Shown here piece by piece: positions 1,953 through 44,067 of a DNA stretch of 55,055 nt. This stretch comes from a virus. How positions within the stretch are numbered: position 1 is the stretch's first letter; each line of letters starts with the position of its first letter. Under the pieces are notes generated by a model. It was not told the DNA's origin. It saw only the letters and a program-made list of their open reading frames with translations, and did not search any database. The position numbers were made by a program, and so were the translations under genes. The DNA is taken from UHGV virus genome UHGV-0209657. One strand, written 5' to 3'.

Positions 1953-2215
1953 ACGCCAAACATCCCATTCAGTCCGGCGAACAATTTCCGCCAGTGGTTT
2001 TCAACATAAGCACGGAACGGCTTAACGCGAACATTGTGGGCCTTTAGTTCAATCTCATCAAAGTAGCGCGGTTCTATGATTGTTCCGTCCAGGTATTTAA
2101 CCACTAGCGGGCGCTCGAGATCGTTATATATCTTATTCAGTACAACCAGGCCAGGGTCATCACGATATTCAGGCAACACAACAAGATCACCAGCCTTTGC
2201 ATCCCATGTTTTCAT
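1943..2215 (-). CDS. hypothetical protein (about 90 aa)
   Basis: ORF; listed start is GTG at 2216-2218, ATG at 2213-2215 taken instead. Confidence 0.35.
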   Translation of the reverse strand: MKTWDAKAGDLVVLPEYRDDPGLVVLNKIYNDLERPLVVKYLDGTIIEPRYFDEIELKAHNVRVKPFRAYVENHWRKLFAGLNGMFGVWL

Positions 2216-2334
2216 CACGGCAACCCTCTAAAAATAAAGCTAACCAACGCAGCAAATGCGCCACAAGAAACAACCACAAACAGGAAGCAAATAATGCAAA
2301 ACGCGACAGTCACAATATCCTTACCGACTTTCAT
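2215..2334 (-). CDS. small hydrophobic peptide (39 aa, MKVGKDIVTVAFCIICFLFVVVSCGAFAALVSFIFRGLP)
   Basis: ATG-initiated micro-ORF, stop overlaps next start (TGATG); single predicted TM helix; below 60-aa ORF-track cutoff. Confidence 0.3.
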   Translation of the reverse strand: MKVGKDIVTVAFCIICFLFVVVSCGAFAALVSFIFRGLP

Positions 2335-2342
2335 GATTGGCC

Positions 2343-2456
2343 TCACATGTTAGTAATGAGTTTAATGATCGCTACCGTGATATAAAGAGATACACTGAGA
2401 TACAGCACGGCGATAGATAAAGCCGCAAGCAATGCGGCAATTTTTGCAAAGCTCAT
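2343..2456 (-). CDS. small hydrophobic peptide (37 aa, MSFAKIAALLAALSIAVLYLSVSLYITVAIIKLITNM)
   Basis: Micro-ORF whose ATG overlaps stop of upstream gene (ATGA); hydrophobic helix. Confidence 0.3.
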   Translation of the reverse strand: MSFAKIAALLAALSIAVLYLSVSLYITVAIIKLITNM

Positions 2457-7363: not shown

Positions 7364-7465
7364 ATGGATAGTAAACACGTTTTCGCCCTGGCTTTCGCCA
7401 TAGCTGCGGCAATAGATGTTAACGTCGTTTTGTTCGGCGGTTTGTACCTTCTCGTTAATCCATAA
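7364..7465 (+). CDS. small hydrophobic peptide (33 aa, MDSKHVFALAFAIAAAIDVNVVLFGGLYLLVNP)
   Basis: ATG micro-ORF with GAGAGGA RBS; below ORF-track cutoff. Confidence 0.25.
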   Translation: MDSKHVFALAFAIAAAIDVNVVLFGGLYLLVNP

Positions 7466-38933: not shown

Positions 38934-40412
38934 TTAAAATCCGCGCAGGCGTTTAGGTAACATAAGACCCATCGCCTGTGGTTGGCTTAATTCAGTGATC
39001 CCCCATACCATCGCATCCATACGGTCAGGGGATTTTTTAGCGGTAGCTGGCACATATTCCATCATTTGATTTTCCAGCGTGTACAGGCTGCCTGTGTGGG
39101 CCACCCTTCCTTGTGCATACAGTGCTGATATTGGCTCGGCGCGGGCGAATTTACCTTTGCTTGCGTGCACCTTAACAATGCGGCCTTTGAATCCGGCATT
39201 ACGCAACGTGGCCTCTGCCATTTCCCCGCCCTGGTTGGTTTCGATAACTATCGCGTCAGCTTCATGGATGTCATATGCTTTCATTGATGCGTGCGCCCAG
39301 TCGTTAGGCGACATGCGGCCCGAATAGTCACCATCAACAGAATACTGAGCATTCTTACCGCCACCATAAGCGGAACACGCCACAATCCCGGTTTCGTCAG
39401 ATTCATCAGATGATGTTGTCGCCGGGTCAATAGCTATCACGGTGCGGATCTTGTCCTGCGTTATCTGCATCCGGTGCGCGGCGGTTATCATCGCTTCAGT
39501 CCATAACGCACCCTCTTCGTCGAATTTACGCGGGCGCTGCATGTACTGGGCTTCAAATGACCGTCTGTGTGCTTTCAGTCCAGCTTCATGGATGTCATTG
39601 TGCTTTTTAGGCCATAGCCAGCCATCTGGCAGGTTGTGAGGAATAGGGATAGCGAACTCGTTTTCAGGGTACAGATCCCAGTAGCCCAGGCTATTGTCTA
39701 TCTTCACTGGCAGGTTAAGGTGATGCCACTTCTCGCCACTGCCACCGCGTAGCAGGTAGCCGGACAAATCATCATAGTGGATGCGCTGCATGATGACGAT
39801 AACAGGCGTTGTTTGCACTGCCAGACGTGAAGCAAGCGTATCGTTATAGTTGGTGTTTACCTGCTTTCTCACCACGTCGGAGTAAGCGTCAGCGGGTTTT
39901 AATGGGTCGTCTATGATTAACGCGCCGTTAAATCCTGATTCCATGTACCCCGCACGGAACCCAGTCACCTGACCAAGTGATGACGTCGCATACACGCCGC
40001 CACCGTATTCGGTCCACCACATCGATTTTGAGTTTGCATCGTTGCGGATCTTCATGGGCCACATTGCCTGATAGTCAGGCGTACAGATCATGTTTCTTAC
40101 AGTAGAGGAATTGAGTAATGCCAGGTTGTTGGAATAGGAAACGTGAAGGAAGCGTGTGCGGGGATTTATTGCGAGGGACCGCGCCATCATGTTGATGGTT
40201 GCGATCATGGTTTTACCGTACCCTGGAGGAATGTTAATGATGAGTCGGGTTATCTCACCATTAATAACGCGTTGCAGTGCATCACGGATGGCTAAATGAT
40301 GGCCTGAGATTAACATCTTCGTTCCGTTCGCTTGCTTGTAGAAATAGCGATTGAAAAACAGGCCGTCGTTTTCACATTTGGACTGAATAACTCGTTCTTT
40401 GATTGTCAACAT
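38934..40412 (-). CDS. terL: terminase large subunit
   Basis: Walker-like ATPase N-domain and nuclease C-domain layout; ATG at 40410-40412. Confidence 0.9.
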   Translation of the reverse strand: MLTIKERVIQSKCENDGLFFNRYFYKQANGTKMLISGHHLAIRDALQRVINGEITRLIINIPPGYGKTMIATINMMARSLAINPRTRFLHVSYSNNLALLNSSTVRNMICTPDYQAMWPMKIRNDANSKSMWWTEYGGGVYATSSLGQVTGFRAGYMESGFNGALIIDDPLKPADAYSDVVRKQVNTNYNDTLASRLAVQTTPVIVIMQRIHYDDLSGYLLRGGSGEKWHHLNLPVKIDNSLGYWDLYPENEFAIPIPHNLPDGWLWPKKHNDIHEAGLKAHRRSFEAQYMQRPRKFDEEGALWTEAMITAAHRMQITQDKIRTVIAIDPATTSSDESDETGIVACSAYGGGKNAQYSVDGDYSGRMSPNDWAHASMKAYDIHEADAIVIETNQGGEMAEATLRNAGFKGRIVKVHASKGKFARAEPISALYAQGRVAHTGSLYTLENQMMEYVPATAKKSPDRMDAMVWGITELSQPQAMGLMLPKRLRGF

Positions 40413-40414
40413 AA

Positions 40415-40900
40415 TCACACCTCGTCTTCTACTTCCTGGACGATGCGGGCGATCTCTTCTTTTGTGACTTCTACCTGTACGGGCGCTTCCTCCCTGTTGC
40501 CGACGATCTCCTGTGTGACGCGTTCACCGTATTTACGCGGTTGCAGTTTTGCCAGTAACCATTTACGCGTTTCAATCATTAGTTGGTGGCGGCGTAATTC
40601 ATCTTTATCAATGTTCTCCGCCGCATCAGCTATATCGATGATCTCATCAGCTAATACCTCAAAACCTATTTCCTTCGCTCTCACATACATGTCCGAAAAT
40701 TCCGGCACATCACGGAACCACTTAAGGATTGTTGAACGTGTTGGCATACCTGGCATCTTCGAAATTTTATTAACGCTATGACCGTCCGCCACCAGTTCAC
40801 AGATCTCTAATGCCTTTTCTTCGGTATAACCATGCGGACGGCCCACCTTTCTAGCTGCTGGCTTTTTATCGTCAGCATTTGCCTTTTTAGTGCGGGCCAT
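40415..40900 (-). CDS. terS: terminase small subunit
   Basis: 161 aa with HTH-like segment, directly upstream of terL. Confidence 0.7.
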   Translation of the reverse strand: MARTKKANADDKKPAARKVGRPHGYTEEKALEICELVADGHSVNKISKMPGMPTRSTILKWFRDVPEFSDMYVRAKEIGFEVLADEIIDIADAAENIDKDELRRHQLMIETRKWLLAKLQPRKYGERVTQEIVGNREEAPVQVEVTKEEIARIVQEVEDEV

Positions 40901-40910
40901 ATTTCACCTC

Positions 40911-41057
40911 TCAATTATCTTTTTCAAATTTTAATTTAAATTCATCCATCATCTTTTCTACTTCCCGTTCGGAAAAGTAGACGGTTTCATTGTTTTCTGC
41001 CGCGTCAAGTGCCTTTCTGATTTCATCAGCCATTTTTAGTTCTTCATTGCTCACCAT
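40911..41057 (-). CDS. small acidic protein (48 aa)
   Basis: ATG with AAGGGGTGA RBS; last gene before terS. Confidence 0.35.
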   Translation of the reverse strand: MVSNEELKMADEIRKALDAAENNETVYFSEREVEKMMDEFKLKFEKDN

Positions 41058-41066
41058 GTCACCCCT

Positions 41067-41150
41067 TTAATATTTATTGATGATATATACGCAAGCCACA
41101 AAACTTGCGCAGTATGTTAATACTTCCAACCAGTCGAATAGCTCTTTCAT
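41067..41150 (-). CDS. micro-ORF peptide 1 (27 aa, MKELFDWLEVLTYCASFVACVYIINKY)
   Basis: ATG, AAGGG RBS, one hydrophobic helix; member of tandem array. Confidence 0.4.
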   Translation of the reverse strand: MKELFDWLEVLTYCASFVACVYIINKY

Positions 41151-41160
41151 TGTTTACCCT

Positions 41161-41241
41161 TCACATAATAGAAAGCGCCCAGGTAATAAGGACGATAGCC
41201 AAAACCATATAGATAAAATCTGACTCTCTCATGTTGTCCAT
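41161..41241 (-). CDS. micro-ORF peptide 2 (26 aa, MDNMRESDFIYMVLAIVLITWALSIM)
   Basis: ATG, AGGA RBS, hydrophobic helix. Confidence 0.4.
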   Translation of the reverse strand: MDNMRESDFIYMVLAIVLITWALSIM

Positions 41242-41246
41242 CCTGC

Positions 41247-41315
41247 TTACTCGAAGAAAACGATAACAACTAACAACGCGCTTATAGCCATAATTAAGAA
41301 ATCACGGTCAGACAT
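41247..41315 (-). CDS. micro-ORF peptide 3 (22 aa, MSDRDFLIMAISALLVVIVFFE)
   Basis: ATG overlaps stop of peptide 4 (ATGTCTGA). Confidence 0.4.
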   Translation of the reverse strand: MSDRDFLIMAISALLVVIVFFE

Positions 41316-41382
41316 TGATAATCACCCCAACGATAATTAACGCAGCGATGCATACGAATAATACGGCTTCGATAACATCCAT
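41308..41382 (-). CDS. micro-ORF peptide 4 (24 aa, MDVIEAVLFVCIAALIIVGVIINV)
   Basis: ATG, GGTGAG RBS, hydrophobic helix. Confidence 0.4.
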   Translation of the reverse strand: MDVIEAVLFVCIAALIIVGVIINV

Positions 41383-41390
41383 TCGCTCAC

Positions 41391-41459
41391 CTATTGAGTC
41401 AGCGCGGTCATGGTAAGAACAATCGCAACGATCAGGAAAAAGAAATCAAGCCATTTCAT
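41391..41459 (-). CDS. micro-ORF peptide 5 (22 aa, MKWLDFFFLIVAIVLTMTALTQ)
   Basis: ATG overlaps stop of peptide 6 (ATGA). Confidence 0.4.
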   Translation of the reverse strand: MKWLDFFFLIVAIVLTMTALTQ

Positions 41460-41536
41460 TTTTTAAACTCCCGATAAACATCTACGGCAATGACTACAAC
41501 TACAGCCACCAGCAATAGCATTTCGTATGCGTTCAT
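41456..41536 (-). CDS. micro-ORF peptide 6 (26 aa, MNAYEMLLLVAVVVVIAVDVYREFKK)
   Basis: ATG, AAGG RBS, hydrophobic helix. Confidence 0.4.
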   Translation of the reverse strand: MNAYEMLLLVAVVVVIAVDVYREFKK

Positions 41537-41547
41537 TGTGGATGCCT

Positions 41548-41622
41548 TCAGCTTTCAATGAATATCATGATCGCCAGCCATACAGCGACGCAGGCAGAAA
41601 GGATAATGAGCGGGTCAATCAT
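41548..41622 (-). CDS. micro-ORF peptide 7 (24 aa, MIDPLIILSACVAVWLAIMIFIES)
   Basis: ATG 1 nt after stop of peptide 8; GGAGGGG RBS. Confidence 0.4.
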   Translation of the reverse strand: MIDPLIILSACVAVWLAIMIFIES

Positions 41623-41623
41623 C

Positions 41624-41731
41624 TTACCCCTCCACCAAATACTTGATATATACGTTTATCAGCGCAACTATAATAGAACCCACCAGAAACACAGAGATAC
41701 CGATTAATCCGGCGATAATGTAATCATCCAT
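41624..41731 (-). CDS. micro-ORF peptide 8 (35 aa, MDDYIIAGLIGISVFLVGSIIVALINVYIKYLVEG)
   Basis: Codon-by-codon translation verified; AGGA RBS. Confidence 0.45.
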   Translation of the reverse strand: MDDYIIAGLIGISVFLVGSIIVALINVYIKYLVEG

Positions 41732-41733
41732 AA

Positions 41734-41823
41734 TCAATCCTGCTTAGACATAGCCACCAGAAACATGCAAAGAATGAATCCAGCCGCCATACCGCCTATA
41801 AACGTTAATATTGATGCAATCAT
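41734..41823 (-). CDS. micro-ORF peptide 9 (29 aa, MIASILTFIGGMAAGFILCMFLVAMSKQD)
   Basis: ATG 2 nt after stop of the HExxH gene. Confidence 0.4.
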   Translation of the reverse strand: MIASILTFIGGMAAGFILCMFLVAMSKQD

Positions 41824-41825
41824 AA

Positions 41826-42368
41826 TCAGCCTCGTTTAAAGCTCATTACACGCGGGACTAACGCATCTTTTTGCTTAGGCTTACGTTTACCTTTCTTCGC
41901 TGGCTTTTCTTCTTCCTTCGGCTGTTCTGCCTGTTCCAGCGCCTGATCGACGACTTCTGCCGCCTGCATTGCTGCAACCTGTGCTTCGTTTGATTCTGCT
42001 AGGATAGGGAAAAACGCATCGAAGATACGGCCTACCATGTAAGCGTAAGTCTCATTCGCCGGATGGGTAGGATCCGTGGTCGCCACGACGCCTACATCAC
42101 TTAAAACGTGGAATGTAGTGTGAGCGCATTCATGGACCAGCGTTCCAGTCTCATTGTTGAATACTGCGATCACGTAGAAATTACCGCCGGTCTCACCAGT
42201 ACAGGTTAACGTCAGACCGCCAGCTAGTTCGAAATCAGGTTCGATTGGTATTCCGGCCTTTTCGCAAAATTCATAGAACATCTCGCGGGTCGGGCAAAAG
42301 AAAACGGTTGTATGCTCAAAGAGCGGGACTTTGAATTGAGGCAACTTAATGCCTTTAGCCTTAGCCAT
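41826..42368 (-). CDS. HExxH-motif protein (putative zincin-like metallopeptidase) with Lys-rich C-terminal tail
   Basis: 180 aa; LVHECAHTTFH motif; between lysis cassette and micro-ORF array. Confidence 0.45.
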   Translation of the reverse strand: MAKAKGIKLPQFKVPLFEHTTVFFCPTREMFYEFCEKAGIPIEPDFELAGGLTLTCTGETGGNFYVIAVFNNETGTLVHECAHTTFHVLSDVGVVATTDPTHPANETYAYMVGRIFDAFFPILAESNEAQVAAMQAAEVVDQALEQAEQPKEEEKPAKKGKRKPKQKDALVPRVMSFKRG

Positions 42369-42636
42369 CAGAATAATCTCCTGTCTGGTTTGCTTTTACT
42401 TCCTGTTTATACAGCGGCAGGAATGACATAAAACACTGAGAACGGCGCTTCATCAGTACCGTTTCCAGAATTTTATAAAATTGGTGAATGGCGCTTTCTT
42501 CTACCCAGGTAGCGCCCGACCTGTTAATGGGACTGTTGATCCGGTATTACGTGTTTTTGAATTTCCGCCGTCGCTCGCGGGAAGGATTGGCCCGGTTATG
42601 GCTGGCTGGCGGAAACGGCGACACGTCCGCGCGCTG

Positions 42637-43107
42637 TTATTCTTTGCGTATGCACTGCGTTTTGATGTAGTCCTGTAATCCGGTGATCTTCGCGTCTTTC
42701 TCTTTTAGTTGTTCTCTGAGGGATAGATAATTTGATTGAGCACTGGCAGTAAGTCTACAGGTGGCTCCATTAATGCTGCTGGCGGTTCCGGTGGCGTCGT
42801 GCACGTACACTGGCTCGGCGTTGACGTGCAACCTGATAGCACCGCTATCAATGCCAGCGCGAAGATCGGCAATGTCAGATCTGATAGCTTTAATCTCATC
42901 GTGATACCTCTTATCAAGTTTTGACAGTTCGGCGTTTCGCTCCTTCATCTGCTGGATAGTGTTACTTGCTGTTTTTAGTGCGCCTTTCGTCACCGTGACT
43001 TCTTCCTGTAACCTTGCCGCCTCACCCTGGTAATAACACGTTACGGCGGTAAGCCCGGCAATAATGCAAACAACAACGGCGATGATTAACGTCTTCACCT
43101 TGTCCAT
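42637..43107 (-). CDS. Rz: i-spanin Rz
   Basis: N-terminal TM segment, coiled-coil periplasmic domain, directly after endolysin. Confidence 0.7.
42705..42899 (-). CDS. Rz1: o-spanin Rz1 (embedded in Rz, alternate frame)
   Basis: Embedded ORF with lipobox LSGC and Pro-rich mature region. Confidence 0.6.
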   Translation of the reverse strand: MRLKLSDLTLPIFALALIAVLSGCTSTPSQCTCTTPPEPPAALMEPPVDLLPVLNQIIYPSENN

Positions 43108-43586
43108 GTTTCACCCCATTCGCAAACGGCATACTCAACATCACGGCGATTAATTAACCCTTGCCACTGCTTACCGCCAGCATATATCCAGCGTTTAAGC
43201 TGTGCGCACGCCTCTGATTTCTTACCGTCATTGAGTAGTTTTAATAAGGTTGATGTCTTAAAGTTGGTAGCGCCTACGTTATAGGCGAATGAATAAAGCG
43301 CCGCGCGGGTAAAATCTGATATTTCGACTTTAATATATGGGTCAATCGCTTTTGCGGTTTTGTGAAGATCTTTGTTTAGTAACGCTTCACACTCTGCTGG
43401 TGTATAAGTTTTTCCCAGCATGATGTCTTTTCCGGTATGACCATAACATACAGTCCATACACCGATAACATCACGATACGGATCGTATTCCACGCCTTCC
43501 AATGGTTTAACCATCACAGCCGCAATAGCGATAGCCCCACCAGCCGCCGCAGCAATAATTTTATTCTTTAGCGATTGGCTAATCAT
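43095..43586 (-). CDS. SAR endolysin (T4-lysozyme-like)
   Basis: N-terminal weakly hydrophobic Ala/Gly-rich segment then E..D..T lysozyme core; ATG at 43584-43586 overlaps holin stop. Confidence 0.75.
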
Positions 43587-43804: not shown

Positions 43805-43830
43805 AAGCAAAAACCCGGCGCGGGGCCGGG
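43805..43830 (-). terminator. hairpin terminator upstream of holin (tR'-like)
   Basis: CCCGGC-gcggg-GCCGGG then T-run on minus strand, about 25 nt before holin RBS. Confidence 0.45.
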
Positions 43831-44067
43831 TAATTACAATTTCGCATTGTTAGGAAATATTTTAATCTGTTTGTTTACGCTCTACAAATACGGCTTACGC
43901 AGTTTTGTATATCAGGCCATTATCAAACAACATTTGCATATGCCACCGATCCATGTCGCTTGATTCCCAATGTGGATCGTCATCAGGTCTTATCATCACC
44001 TTATTACCTTTAAGTAAATAGACGATGTTAAATACCTTATGCAAATAGATGCCGTCTTCGATCTCGT

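Follow-up and report, generated by a model that had tools for sequence, protein, structure and literature searches.

The window analysed here is the whole stretch of 55,055 nucleotides (nt) of UHGV virus genome UHGV-0209657. On its minus strand, between the gene for a protein with an HExxH motif and the gene for the small terminase subunit (TerS), lies a tandem array of nine very short open reading frames (micro-ORFs). We found that these micro-ORFs are coding and under purifying selection at the amino-acid level, and that arrays of this kind change in number and content by gain, loss and duplication of whole cassettes. The explanation that we consider best, and hold with moderate confidence, is that the locus is a lineage-specific, cassette-like array of genes for single-pass inner-membrane microproteins, placed between a predicted metallopeptidase gene and TerS.

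The locus is that of an mEp021-like (mEpimmI) temperate Escherichia coli siphovirus, with 84-90% identity to phages MagusPhagus, mEp021, mEp044, mEp010, mEp554 and mEp013. The region is 99.9% identical to a prophage of E. coli N25, and prophages 80-90% identical to it were found in 34 further complete E. coli genomes. For the comparisons described below, 66 related loci were pooled, from 6 phages, 15 prophages and 45 IMG/VR contigs, and 22 of them made up the first round.

Micro-ORFs are coding and under purifying selection

An earlier note on the window, made from its letters, had pointed to nine ATG-initiated micro-ORFs at 41067-41823 (minus strand) and to an acidic 48-aa (amino-acid) ORF at 40911-41057 (minus) that ends the string. 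All ten are present, and the nine, each starting with ATG, encode peptides of 22-35 amino acids (aa) that consist, as had been described, of a short polar or acidic N-terminus and one hydrophobic stretch, with an uncharged core of 13-26 residues. The packing is also as tight as had been claimed, with gaps of 1-11 nt or stop and start codons that overlap by 4 nt (ATGA) or 8 nt (ATGTCTGA); from the stop codon of the HExxH gene through successive ORFs to the start of TerS, the spacings are 2, 2, 1, 11, -4 (ATGA), 8, -8 (ATGTCTGA), 5, 10, 9 and 10 nt. A Shine-Dalgarno (SD)-like sequence had been noticed at most starts, and pairing with the anti-SD sequence was -4.4 kcal/mol or better in 8 of the 10.

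Hydrophobic ATG micro-ORFs, between 3 and 13 in number, were detected between the HExxH gene and TerS in every one of the 66 related loci, and in the first-round loci they fill 75-95% of this gap, with the exception of mEp013, in which an HNH endonuclease gene takes part of the space. When such an accumulation was evaluated against chance, the 771 nt of the sense strand contained 9 hydrophobic ATG ORFs of 20-60 aa and the antisense strand contained 0, compared with 0.58±0.68 (maximum 3) in 1,000 shuffled sequences. The rest of the 55-kb window holds no more than 3-4 ORFs of this type per 770 nt, and the maximum in loci of other lambdoid and P22-like phages (623 kb) was 3 per 800 nt.

Selection was measured as the ratio of nonsynonymous to synonymous polymorphism (pN/pS), which was 0.18-0.53 per family in the 13 families of micro-ORFs for which it was calculated. 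The pooled value was 0.28 in frame, versus 1.04 and 1.14 when the other two sense frames were used, and variable sites were distributed over the three codon positions as 149/125/241. One antisense frame gave a pN/pS of 0.38, which is expected because the wobble positions of that frame coincide with those of the sense frame; the antisense strand is without ORFs. The 27-aa peptide of family F18 is identical in 33 arrays despite 34 nucleotide variants, and in the first-round loci 12 identical F06 peptides came from 14 different nucleotide sequences. Among the 55 distinct arrays, the ORFs are intact, and anti-SD pairing averaged -4.97 kcal/mol at 518 starts, versus -1.99 kcal/mol at 941 other ATGs. 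The earlier note had considered that relatives might show frameshifted or unconserved sequence here, or that the region might prove to be a structured RNA. Neither was borne out: the micro-ORFs are conserved and intact in relatives, the fold z-score of the sense RNA is +0.85, and no Rfam family was found on either strand. Judged from these sequence comparisons, it is very probable that the nine micro-ORFs are real, translated genes.

Arrays differ by whole cassettes

The micro-ORFs fall into about 20 sequence families whose order is fixed and collinear, and the 66 arrays include 55 distinct ones. A comparison of copy number among related phages, which had been suggested as a check, revealed the variation from 3 to 13 micro-ORFs given above, the smallest array having three genes (L045) and that of mEp021 itself having five. 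Four families are near-core, F06 (55/55 arrays), F10 (53/55), F13a (50/55) and F18 (54/55), and the remaining families are optional.

The changes in number and content occur by gain, loss and duplication of entire cassettes. Relative to MagusPhagus, the window is without F08 and F09, and the indel extends exactly from the start-codon ATGAA to the ATGAA of the next retained gene. The ribosome-binding site and start are repeated between cassettes, as seen for ATAGGTGACGGCATGGATATATTCGAA (before F09) and ATAGGTGAGCGAATGGATGTTATCGAA (before F12), which share 78% identity over 27 nt. The proposal that the peptides are a diversified paralogous family stood for part of the array. Peptide similarity beyond that due to composition was detected among F13a, F13b and F13c (z of 4.9-8.4; F13a to F13b or F13c, 4.9-5.6; F13b to F13c, 8.4) and, at a moderate level, among F08, F09, F10 and F12 (z of 3.5-4.4), but paralogy was not demonstrable for the other pairs. 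In tblastn searches, F05 and F18 gave matches only in phages of the mEp021 group.

One family is found well outside this group. A homologue of F01, in the form of an intact 29-codon ORF with ~80% nucleotide identity, is carried by ~90 unrelated lytic rV5-like (Vequintavirus) phages, where it occupies a 95-bp 'intergenic' gap that most records leave unannotated; the few records that annotate it include AlexBoehm, with a 29-aa coding sequence. We conclude that this 90-bp gene has been transferred horizontally between temperate mEp021-like siphoviruses and lytic rV5-like myoviruses.

The HExxH protein is a predicted metallopeptidase that also occurs without the array

Upstream of the array, the earlier note had recorded a 180-aa protein with an HECAH motif of zincin-like appearance and a Lys-rich tail, encoded between the lysis cassette and terminase, and this description is accurate. 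HECAH occupies residues 79-83 and is followed by a third-ligand residue, Glu106, an acidic helix and the Lys-rich C-terminal tail. The protein gave no match in Pfam, and it matches phrog_1365, a family with no assigned function (E=3e-31, residues 1-131 against profile positions 3-124 of 127). An exhaustive search collected 149 representatives, mostly standalone proteins of ~120 aa, and residues G51, H79, E80, H83 and E106 are invariant in 62 aligned homologues (23-62% identity), in agreement with the zincin-like assignment. In the predicted structure (pLDDT 90), H79, E80, H83 and E106 are located in helices 74-91 and 103-148. An HExxH-plus-Glu constellation was described by Iyer et al. for zincin-like metallopeptidases of phages and plasmids (PMC5512222). 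The HExxH protein is thus predicted, from sequence and structural model, to be a standalone zincin-like metallopeptidase of the gluzincin type.

Three other placements were considered for this protein. Occurrence as a domain of a large multidomain 'polyvalent' protein, as known for the PolyVal metallopeptidase, was not seen, the homologues being standalone proteins of ~110-190 aa; the PolyVal label comes only from a source name, on P0118. The SprT-like family PF10263 gave no hit in the window protein and weak hits in 17 of the 62 homologues (best E 0.009). Some distant loci contain a second, unrelated metallopeptidase (PF18894, 'PhageMetallopep') beside the phrog_1365 gene, and a relation between the two was rejected, with an hhalign probability of 1.4%.

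The genomic surroundings of distant homologues were examined in 80 lambdoid and P22-like loci (IMG/VR, L070-L149) retrieved with a 10-sequence alignment. In these loci, ORFs of ~150-220 aa and 415-540 aa come after the protease gene and were identified as TerS and the large terminase subunit (TerL) in four loci scanned with Pfam, and TerS is of four types (Sf6-like, P22 gp3, DUF2280 and Terminase_2). Upstream of the protease gene are endolysin or spanin genes together with variable accessory genes (KilA-N, DUF2560, HNH). Only 0-1 hydrophobic micro-ORFs were found within 1.5 kb of the protease gene in any of the 80. Closer relatives differ from one another: a metallopeptidase 62% identical to that of the window is accompanied by an array of seven genes with almost the same peptides (L150), and one that is 52% identical, with a similar basic tail, adjoins TerS with a 3-nt gap and no array (L151). 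The unit of HExxH protein plus array that the earlier note implied is therefore contradicted by these loci, and the presence of protease loci without an array indicates that the array is an accessory insertion specific to the mEp021-like lineage. The slot between the metallopeptidase gene and TerS is elsewhere empty or filled by other accessory genes. In mEp013, the metallopeptidase gene and the array are parted by an inserted HNH endonuclease gene (L007, 2033-2518), from which it follows that the junction is an insertion hot-spot.

These observations bear on the idea that the protease and the peptides are one system, in which the peptides would serve as substrates, membrane anchors or regulators of the enzyme. 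The common strand, the gap of just 2 nt between the protease gene and the first micro-ORF, and a basic C-terminal tail that could bind membrane or nucleic acid are all in keeping with such a system, but it is largely refuted by synteny, since the distant protease genes are followed by TerS or other genes, a 52%-identical protease with the same type of tail manages without an array, and an HNH gene splits protease from array in mEp013. We regard a joint system as improbable, and propose that the HExxH protein acts independently, as a zincin-type metallopeptidase of the lysis-packaging junction. The uncharacterised phrog_1365 zincin family can now be assigned a fixed position in many lambdoid and P22-like phages, directly 5' of the gene for the small terminase, whichever of the four TerS families is present.

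Proposed role of the peptides and competing explanations

Read along the minus strand, the genes come in the order holin, endolysin, Rz/Rz1, a non-coding stretch, the HExxH gene, the micro-ORFs, the 48-aa ORF, TerS and TerL. Directly upstream of the holin gene, on the same strand, there is a promoter-like site (43946-43919) followed by a strong GC-rich terminator (43831-43813). This pair of sites before the holin gene (43813-43946) resembles the pR'-tR' arrangement of lambda late antitermination, although the phage is described as non-lambdoid. No promoter or terminator was found between the array and TerS, which starts 10 nt past the last ORF, and therefore transcription to the terminase and head genes must cross the array. 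With respect to the peptides themselves, the segment N-terminal to the helix has a net negative charge in 158 of 206 distinct peptides and a positive charge in 7, and for the C-terminal flank the counts are 83 positive and 32 negative. Across families, conservation extends to polar and small residues within the helix (S, C, G, T, Y, W). Because each family is conserved along the whole helix, these residues included, sequence-specific helix-helix binding is favoured over non-specific membrane damage.

The scheme that we favour would operate as follows. The micro-ORFs would be carried on a late polycistronic mRNA, so that the peptides are made late, along with lysis and packaging proteins, and their translation would be partly coupled through the ATGA and ATGTCTGA overlaps. 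With their acidic N-terminal tail and often basic C-terminal flank, the peptides would insert into the inner membrane in an N-out/C-in orientation, where the helices may bind phage or host inner-membrane proteins in a sequence-specific manner, most likely with the effect of tuning holin-dependent lysis or other late membrane processes. We consider it quite likely, on the evidence of gene position and charge distribution, that the peptides are late, inner-membrane and N-out. The further steps, binding of helices to membrane proteins with lysis tuning as the likeliest phenotype, are suggested tentatively.

Several points weigh against this scheme. The late promoter and terminator are consensus matches only, and the pairwise pN/pS values are phylogenetically non-independent. 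No peptide matches a family of known function in Pfam, NCBIfam or PHROG, and for this reason the helix-binding mechanism is argued by analogy. F01 in the rV5-like phages is located among unrelated small genes and not beside lysis genes, which weakens the case for a lysis-specific role. The paper on the mEpimmI group reports virion proteins only, the mass spectrometry of mEp021 having been done on virions, and does not discuss the array region (PMC11893012).

A different view of the same peptides, possible but doubtful, is that the array consists of fast-evolving, membrane-targeted conflict genes, each microprotein inhibiting a different host inner-membrane protein. The targets might be abortive-infection effectors (pore-forming or membrane-anchored, and triggered by late proteins) or inner-membrane components on which rival phages depend for DNA entry, and cassettes would turn over as they do in anti-defence islands, by gain, loss, duplication and exchange that reaches even lytic rV5-like phages. 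If this were true, the array would be the equivalent, at the membrane, of anti-CRISPR loci, with genes as small as genes can be.

Also doubtful is the idea that the peptides depolarise the membrane generically, their late build-up lowering the proton-motive force and helping or advancing holin triggering, with cassette number setting the dose. Single helices of 22-35 aa are also the form of small membrane toxins, the array is located downstream of the lysis cassette in the same direction of transcription, and a copy number of 3-13 is compatible with an additive effect of dose. However, distinct families, pN/pS values of 0.18-0.38 for most of them, and identical peptides over many nucleotide variants point to specific contacts. 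In addition, a conserved non-coding element of ~270 nt and the metallopeptidase gene stand between the array and the lysis genes, and F01 in rV5-like phages is not linked to lysis. Thus, we consider generic membrane poisons less likely than specific binders.

Alternatively, the near-core peptides (F06, F10, F13a and F18), with or without the variable ones, might assemble into a hetero-oligomeric helical bundle, a 'split' membrane complex with a separate gene for each helix, comparable to the small-subunit operons psbEFLJ and petG/L/N. The occurrence of these four families in 50-55 of 55 arrays in a fixed order would suit a bundle, as would translational coupling, which favours stoichiometric synthesis, and the conserved polar residues within the helices. 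This explanation appears unlikely, given that one array has three genes (L045), that mEp021 has five and that F01 occurs alone in the rV5-like phages.

Type I toxin-antitoxin modules are autonomous units. The earlier note had compared the peptides with type I toxins, and addiction modules that stabilise the prophage would account for their size and hydrophobicity, which are like those of Ibs, Ldr, TisB and ShoB; type I systems are known in prophages (PMC12648545). Membership of this class was not borne out. No toxin family (Hok, Ldr, Ibs, TisB, ShoB etc.) was matched in Pfam, NCBIfam or PHROG, and no Rfam antitoxin small RNA was found on either strand at E<=1, although an RNA of an undescribed type is possible. 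Promoter-like sites in the array numbered 3, compared with 8.4 expected from shuffled sequences, with just two weak sites in antisense. At least nine genes with SD sequences and overlaps share one operon, inside the late transcription unit and with no individual promoters, long leaders or terminators, and F01 is carried by strictly lytic phages too. We therefore regard type I modules as very improbable.

The same holds for the view that these are not genes at all, but ORFs that arose by chance in a T-rich spacer, a site acting as structured RNA or as DNA, or the wreck of a frameshifted multi-pass membrane gene, which would fit the low GC content (~0.40 in the array versus ~0.50 in the flanking genes), the T-rich coding strand and the absence of PGAP calls, but is opposed by frame-specific purifying selection, ORF integrity in 55 arrays, SD enrichment at starts, the excess over shuffled (9 versus 0.58) and antisense (0) sequence, the fold z-score of +0.85, indels that keep cassette boundaries, and the lack of similarity to any larger protein in Pfam, NCBIfam or PHROG.

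Annotation of the locus and neighbouring features

As the earlier note had anticipated, an annotator would see an empty gap here. In each of the 16 prophages inspected (N25 and 15 others), the PGAP annotation has a blank of 750-1000 nt, within which only the 48-aa ORF is called, where that is present. Phage records based on PHANOTATE include some of the micro-ORFs, but not all, and the exact F05 peptide is called as a 'hypothetical protein' on 98 contigs. The nine peptides and F16 were compared with Pfam, NCBIfam and PHROGs, with no meaningful match up to E=10; the E. coli copy of F01 carries the label 'DUF3789' in UniRef, which the Pfam scan done here did not reproduce. A search of 5.8 billion proteins gave only 5 close clusters for the 48-aa protein (PGAP WP_023278320.1), each of them in the mEp021-like lineage. 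In the literature searched, the coverage of which was incomplete (including PMC11893012, PMC11188072 and PMC12648545, and spanning the paper on the mEpimmI group and a survey of 67,297 enterobacterial intergenic clusters of small ORFs), no account of one-helix micro-genes in a hypervariable tandem array was found. The array thus exposes a systematic blind spot of annotation: ~2% of each mEp021-like genome codes for ~20 microprotein families that reference annotation omits and no database family covers. In a collection of coliphages from human faeces, these phages are reported to match the lambdoid phages in prevalence (PMC11893012).

Positions of the array and its neighbours are listed below.

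Features of the micro-ORF locus. Positions refer to the window unless another locus is named, and those of micro-ORFs include the stop codon; fractions give the arrays or first-round loci that carry the family.
Feature	Position	Strand	Product and properties
TerL, large terminase	38934-40418	minus	
TerS, small terminase	40415-40900	minus	Sf6-type
48-aa ORF (F17)	40911-41057	minus	Acidic non-membrane protein; optional, at array 3' end; 7/55 arrays; pN/pS 0.41 (n=3)
Micro-ORF 9 (F18)	41067-41150	minus	27 aa MKELFDWLEVLTYCASFVACVYIINKY; near-core; 54/55 arrays (G22+G23); pN/pS 0.25
Micro-ORF 8 (F13c)	41161-41241	minus	26 aa MDNMRESDFIYMVLAIVLITWALSIM; weak SD pairing, -2.5 kcal/mol
Micro-ORF 7 (F14)	41247-41315	minus	22 aa MSDRDFLIMAISALLVVIVFFE; overlaps ORF 6 by 8 nt (ATGTCTGA); 35/55 arrays; pN/pS 0.29; SD pairing -6.0 kcal/mol
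Micro-ORF 6 (F12)	41308-41382	minus	24 aa MDVIEAVLFVCIAALIIVGVIINV; 39/55 arrays; pN/pS 0.38
Micro-ORF 5 (F13a)	41391-41459	minus	22 aa MKWLDFFFLIVAIVLTMTALTQ; near-core; 50/55 arrays; SD pairing -6.9 kcal/mol
Micro-ORF 4 (F10)	41456-41536	minus	26 aa MNAYEMLLLVAVVVVIAVDVYREFKK; near-core; 53/55 arrays; pN/pS 0.26; stop overlaps next start (ATGA)
Micro-ORF 3 (F06)	41548-41622	minus	24 aa MIDPLIILSACVAVWLAIMIFIES; near-core; 21/22 loci; pN/pS 0.18; SD pairing -9.8 kcal/mol
Micro-ORF 2 (F05)	41624-41731	minus	35 aa MDDYIIAGLIGISVFLVGSIIVALINVYIKYLVEG; 18/22 loci; pN/pS 0.35
Micro-ORF 1 (F01)	41734-41823	minus	29 aa MIASILTFIGGMAAGFILCMFLVAMSKQD; 11/55 arrays; pN/pS 0.20; SD pairing -5.9 kcal/mol
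F01 copy in L003	1506-1595		
F01 copy in L024	1206-1295		
HExxH gene	41826-42368	minus	180 aa
Non-coding stretch, Rz to HExxH gene	42369-42636	minus	268 nt
Rz/Rz1	42637-43107	minus	
Endolysin	43095-43586	minus	

The non-coding stretch at 42369-42636 is itself conserved, being at least 90% invariant at most positions in 51 distinct relatives, compared with ~85% in the neighbouring genes. Within it, a hairpin (GGAAACGG...CCGTTCTC in the window, CCGTTTTC in most relatives) precedes a U-tract, a structure annotated in mEp021 as terminator TERM_6; the fold z-score of the stretch is -2.3, and some relatives have a 57-nt insertion. An antisense ORF of 60 aa (42488-42670, plus strand) that is annotated in mEp013 was rejected as non-coding, being frameshifted between relatives. 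A role in cis is possible for this stretch, for example in packaging or as a signal for late transcription.

Similar small transmembrane ORFs had been reported at two other places in the window, and both exist. At 2215-2456 (minus strand), ORFs of 43 and 37 aa stand in tandem (MSFAKIAALLAALSIAVLYLSVSLYITVAIIKLITNM), and at 7364-7465 (plus strand) there is one of 33 aa (MDSKHVFALAFAIAAAIDVNVVLFGGLYLLVNP); neither site shows obvious similarity to the array families. Collinearity between the window and the N25 record is lost as far out as these positions, where sitABCD, uspF and ompN are found instead.

Comparison with known systems

For the HExxH protein, the closest likenesses are to the PolyVal metallopeptidases (Iyer et al., 2017; PMC5512222), the SprT-like proteins and the minigluzincins (PDB 3e11), all of which have an HExxH helix and a downstream Glu helix on a small beta-sheet, and the family is widespread in phages.

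We rate the array as small phage membrane proteins of a known kind in a new genomic organisation. The type I toxins (Ibs, Ldr, TisB, ShoB, Hok, Fst and BsrG) are likewise small, hydrophobic, single-helix peptides, some of them prophage-borne, but the genes of the array are embedded in an operon, in tandem, and are found in lytic phages also. Holins usually have 60-150 aa and a charged C-terminal domain. Holins, antiholins and the single-gene lysis peptides of single-stranded RNA phages are comparable to the array peptides as small phage membrane proteins with late expression, proximity to the lysis cassette and easy de novo emergence of transmembrane peptides. The micro-ORFs gave no holin match in Pfam or PHROG, and the phage has a separate holin, endolysin and Rz/Rz1.

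Pf3 coat and M13 procoat are virion coat proteins of filamentous phages. As single-span proteins inserted N-out by YidC, they have in common with the array peptides a short acidic N-tail, one helix, a basic C-flank and the predicted topology, but the array peptides are half their size and belong to a siphovirus, with no structural virion role seen.

A parallel in mode of action may be offered by the small regulatory proteins of the bacterial inner membrane, AcrZ, MgtS, MgrB, KdpF and CydX (PMC12648545), which are also shorter than 50 aa, have one transmembrane helix, usually escape annotation and are conserved in sequence, and which act by helix-helix binding to larger membrane proteins. These are single chromosomal genes with known partners, whereas the array comprises 3-13 tandem, unrelated or paralogous genes of a late phage operon, with fast turnover and no sequence similarity to them. 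The array is a compact natural test bed for how one-helix microproteins arise, duplicate and diversify, and for what minimal proteins do in membranes, and it is directly testable, with the phages and a K-12 host in hand.

In gene arrangement, the array resembles the psbE-F-L-J and petG/L/N operons, in which consecutive micro-genes also encode one transmembrane helix each; those operons are a fixed set that serves a known complex, whereas the array described here is hypervariable.

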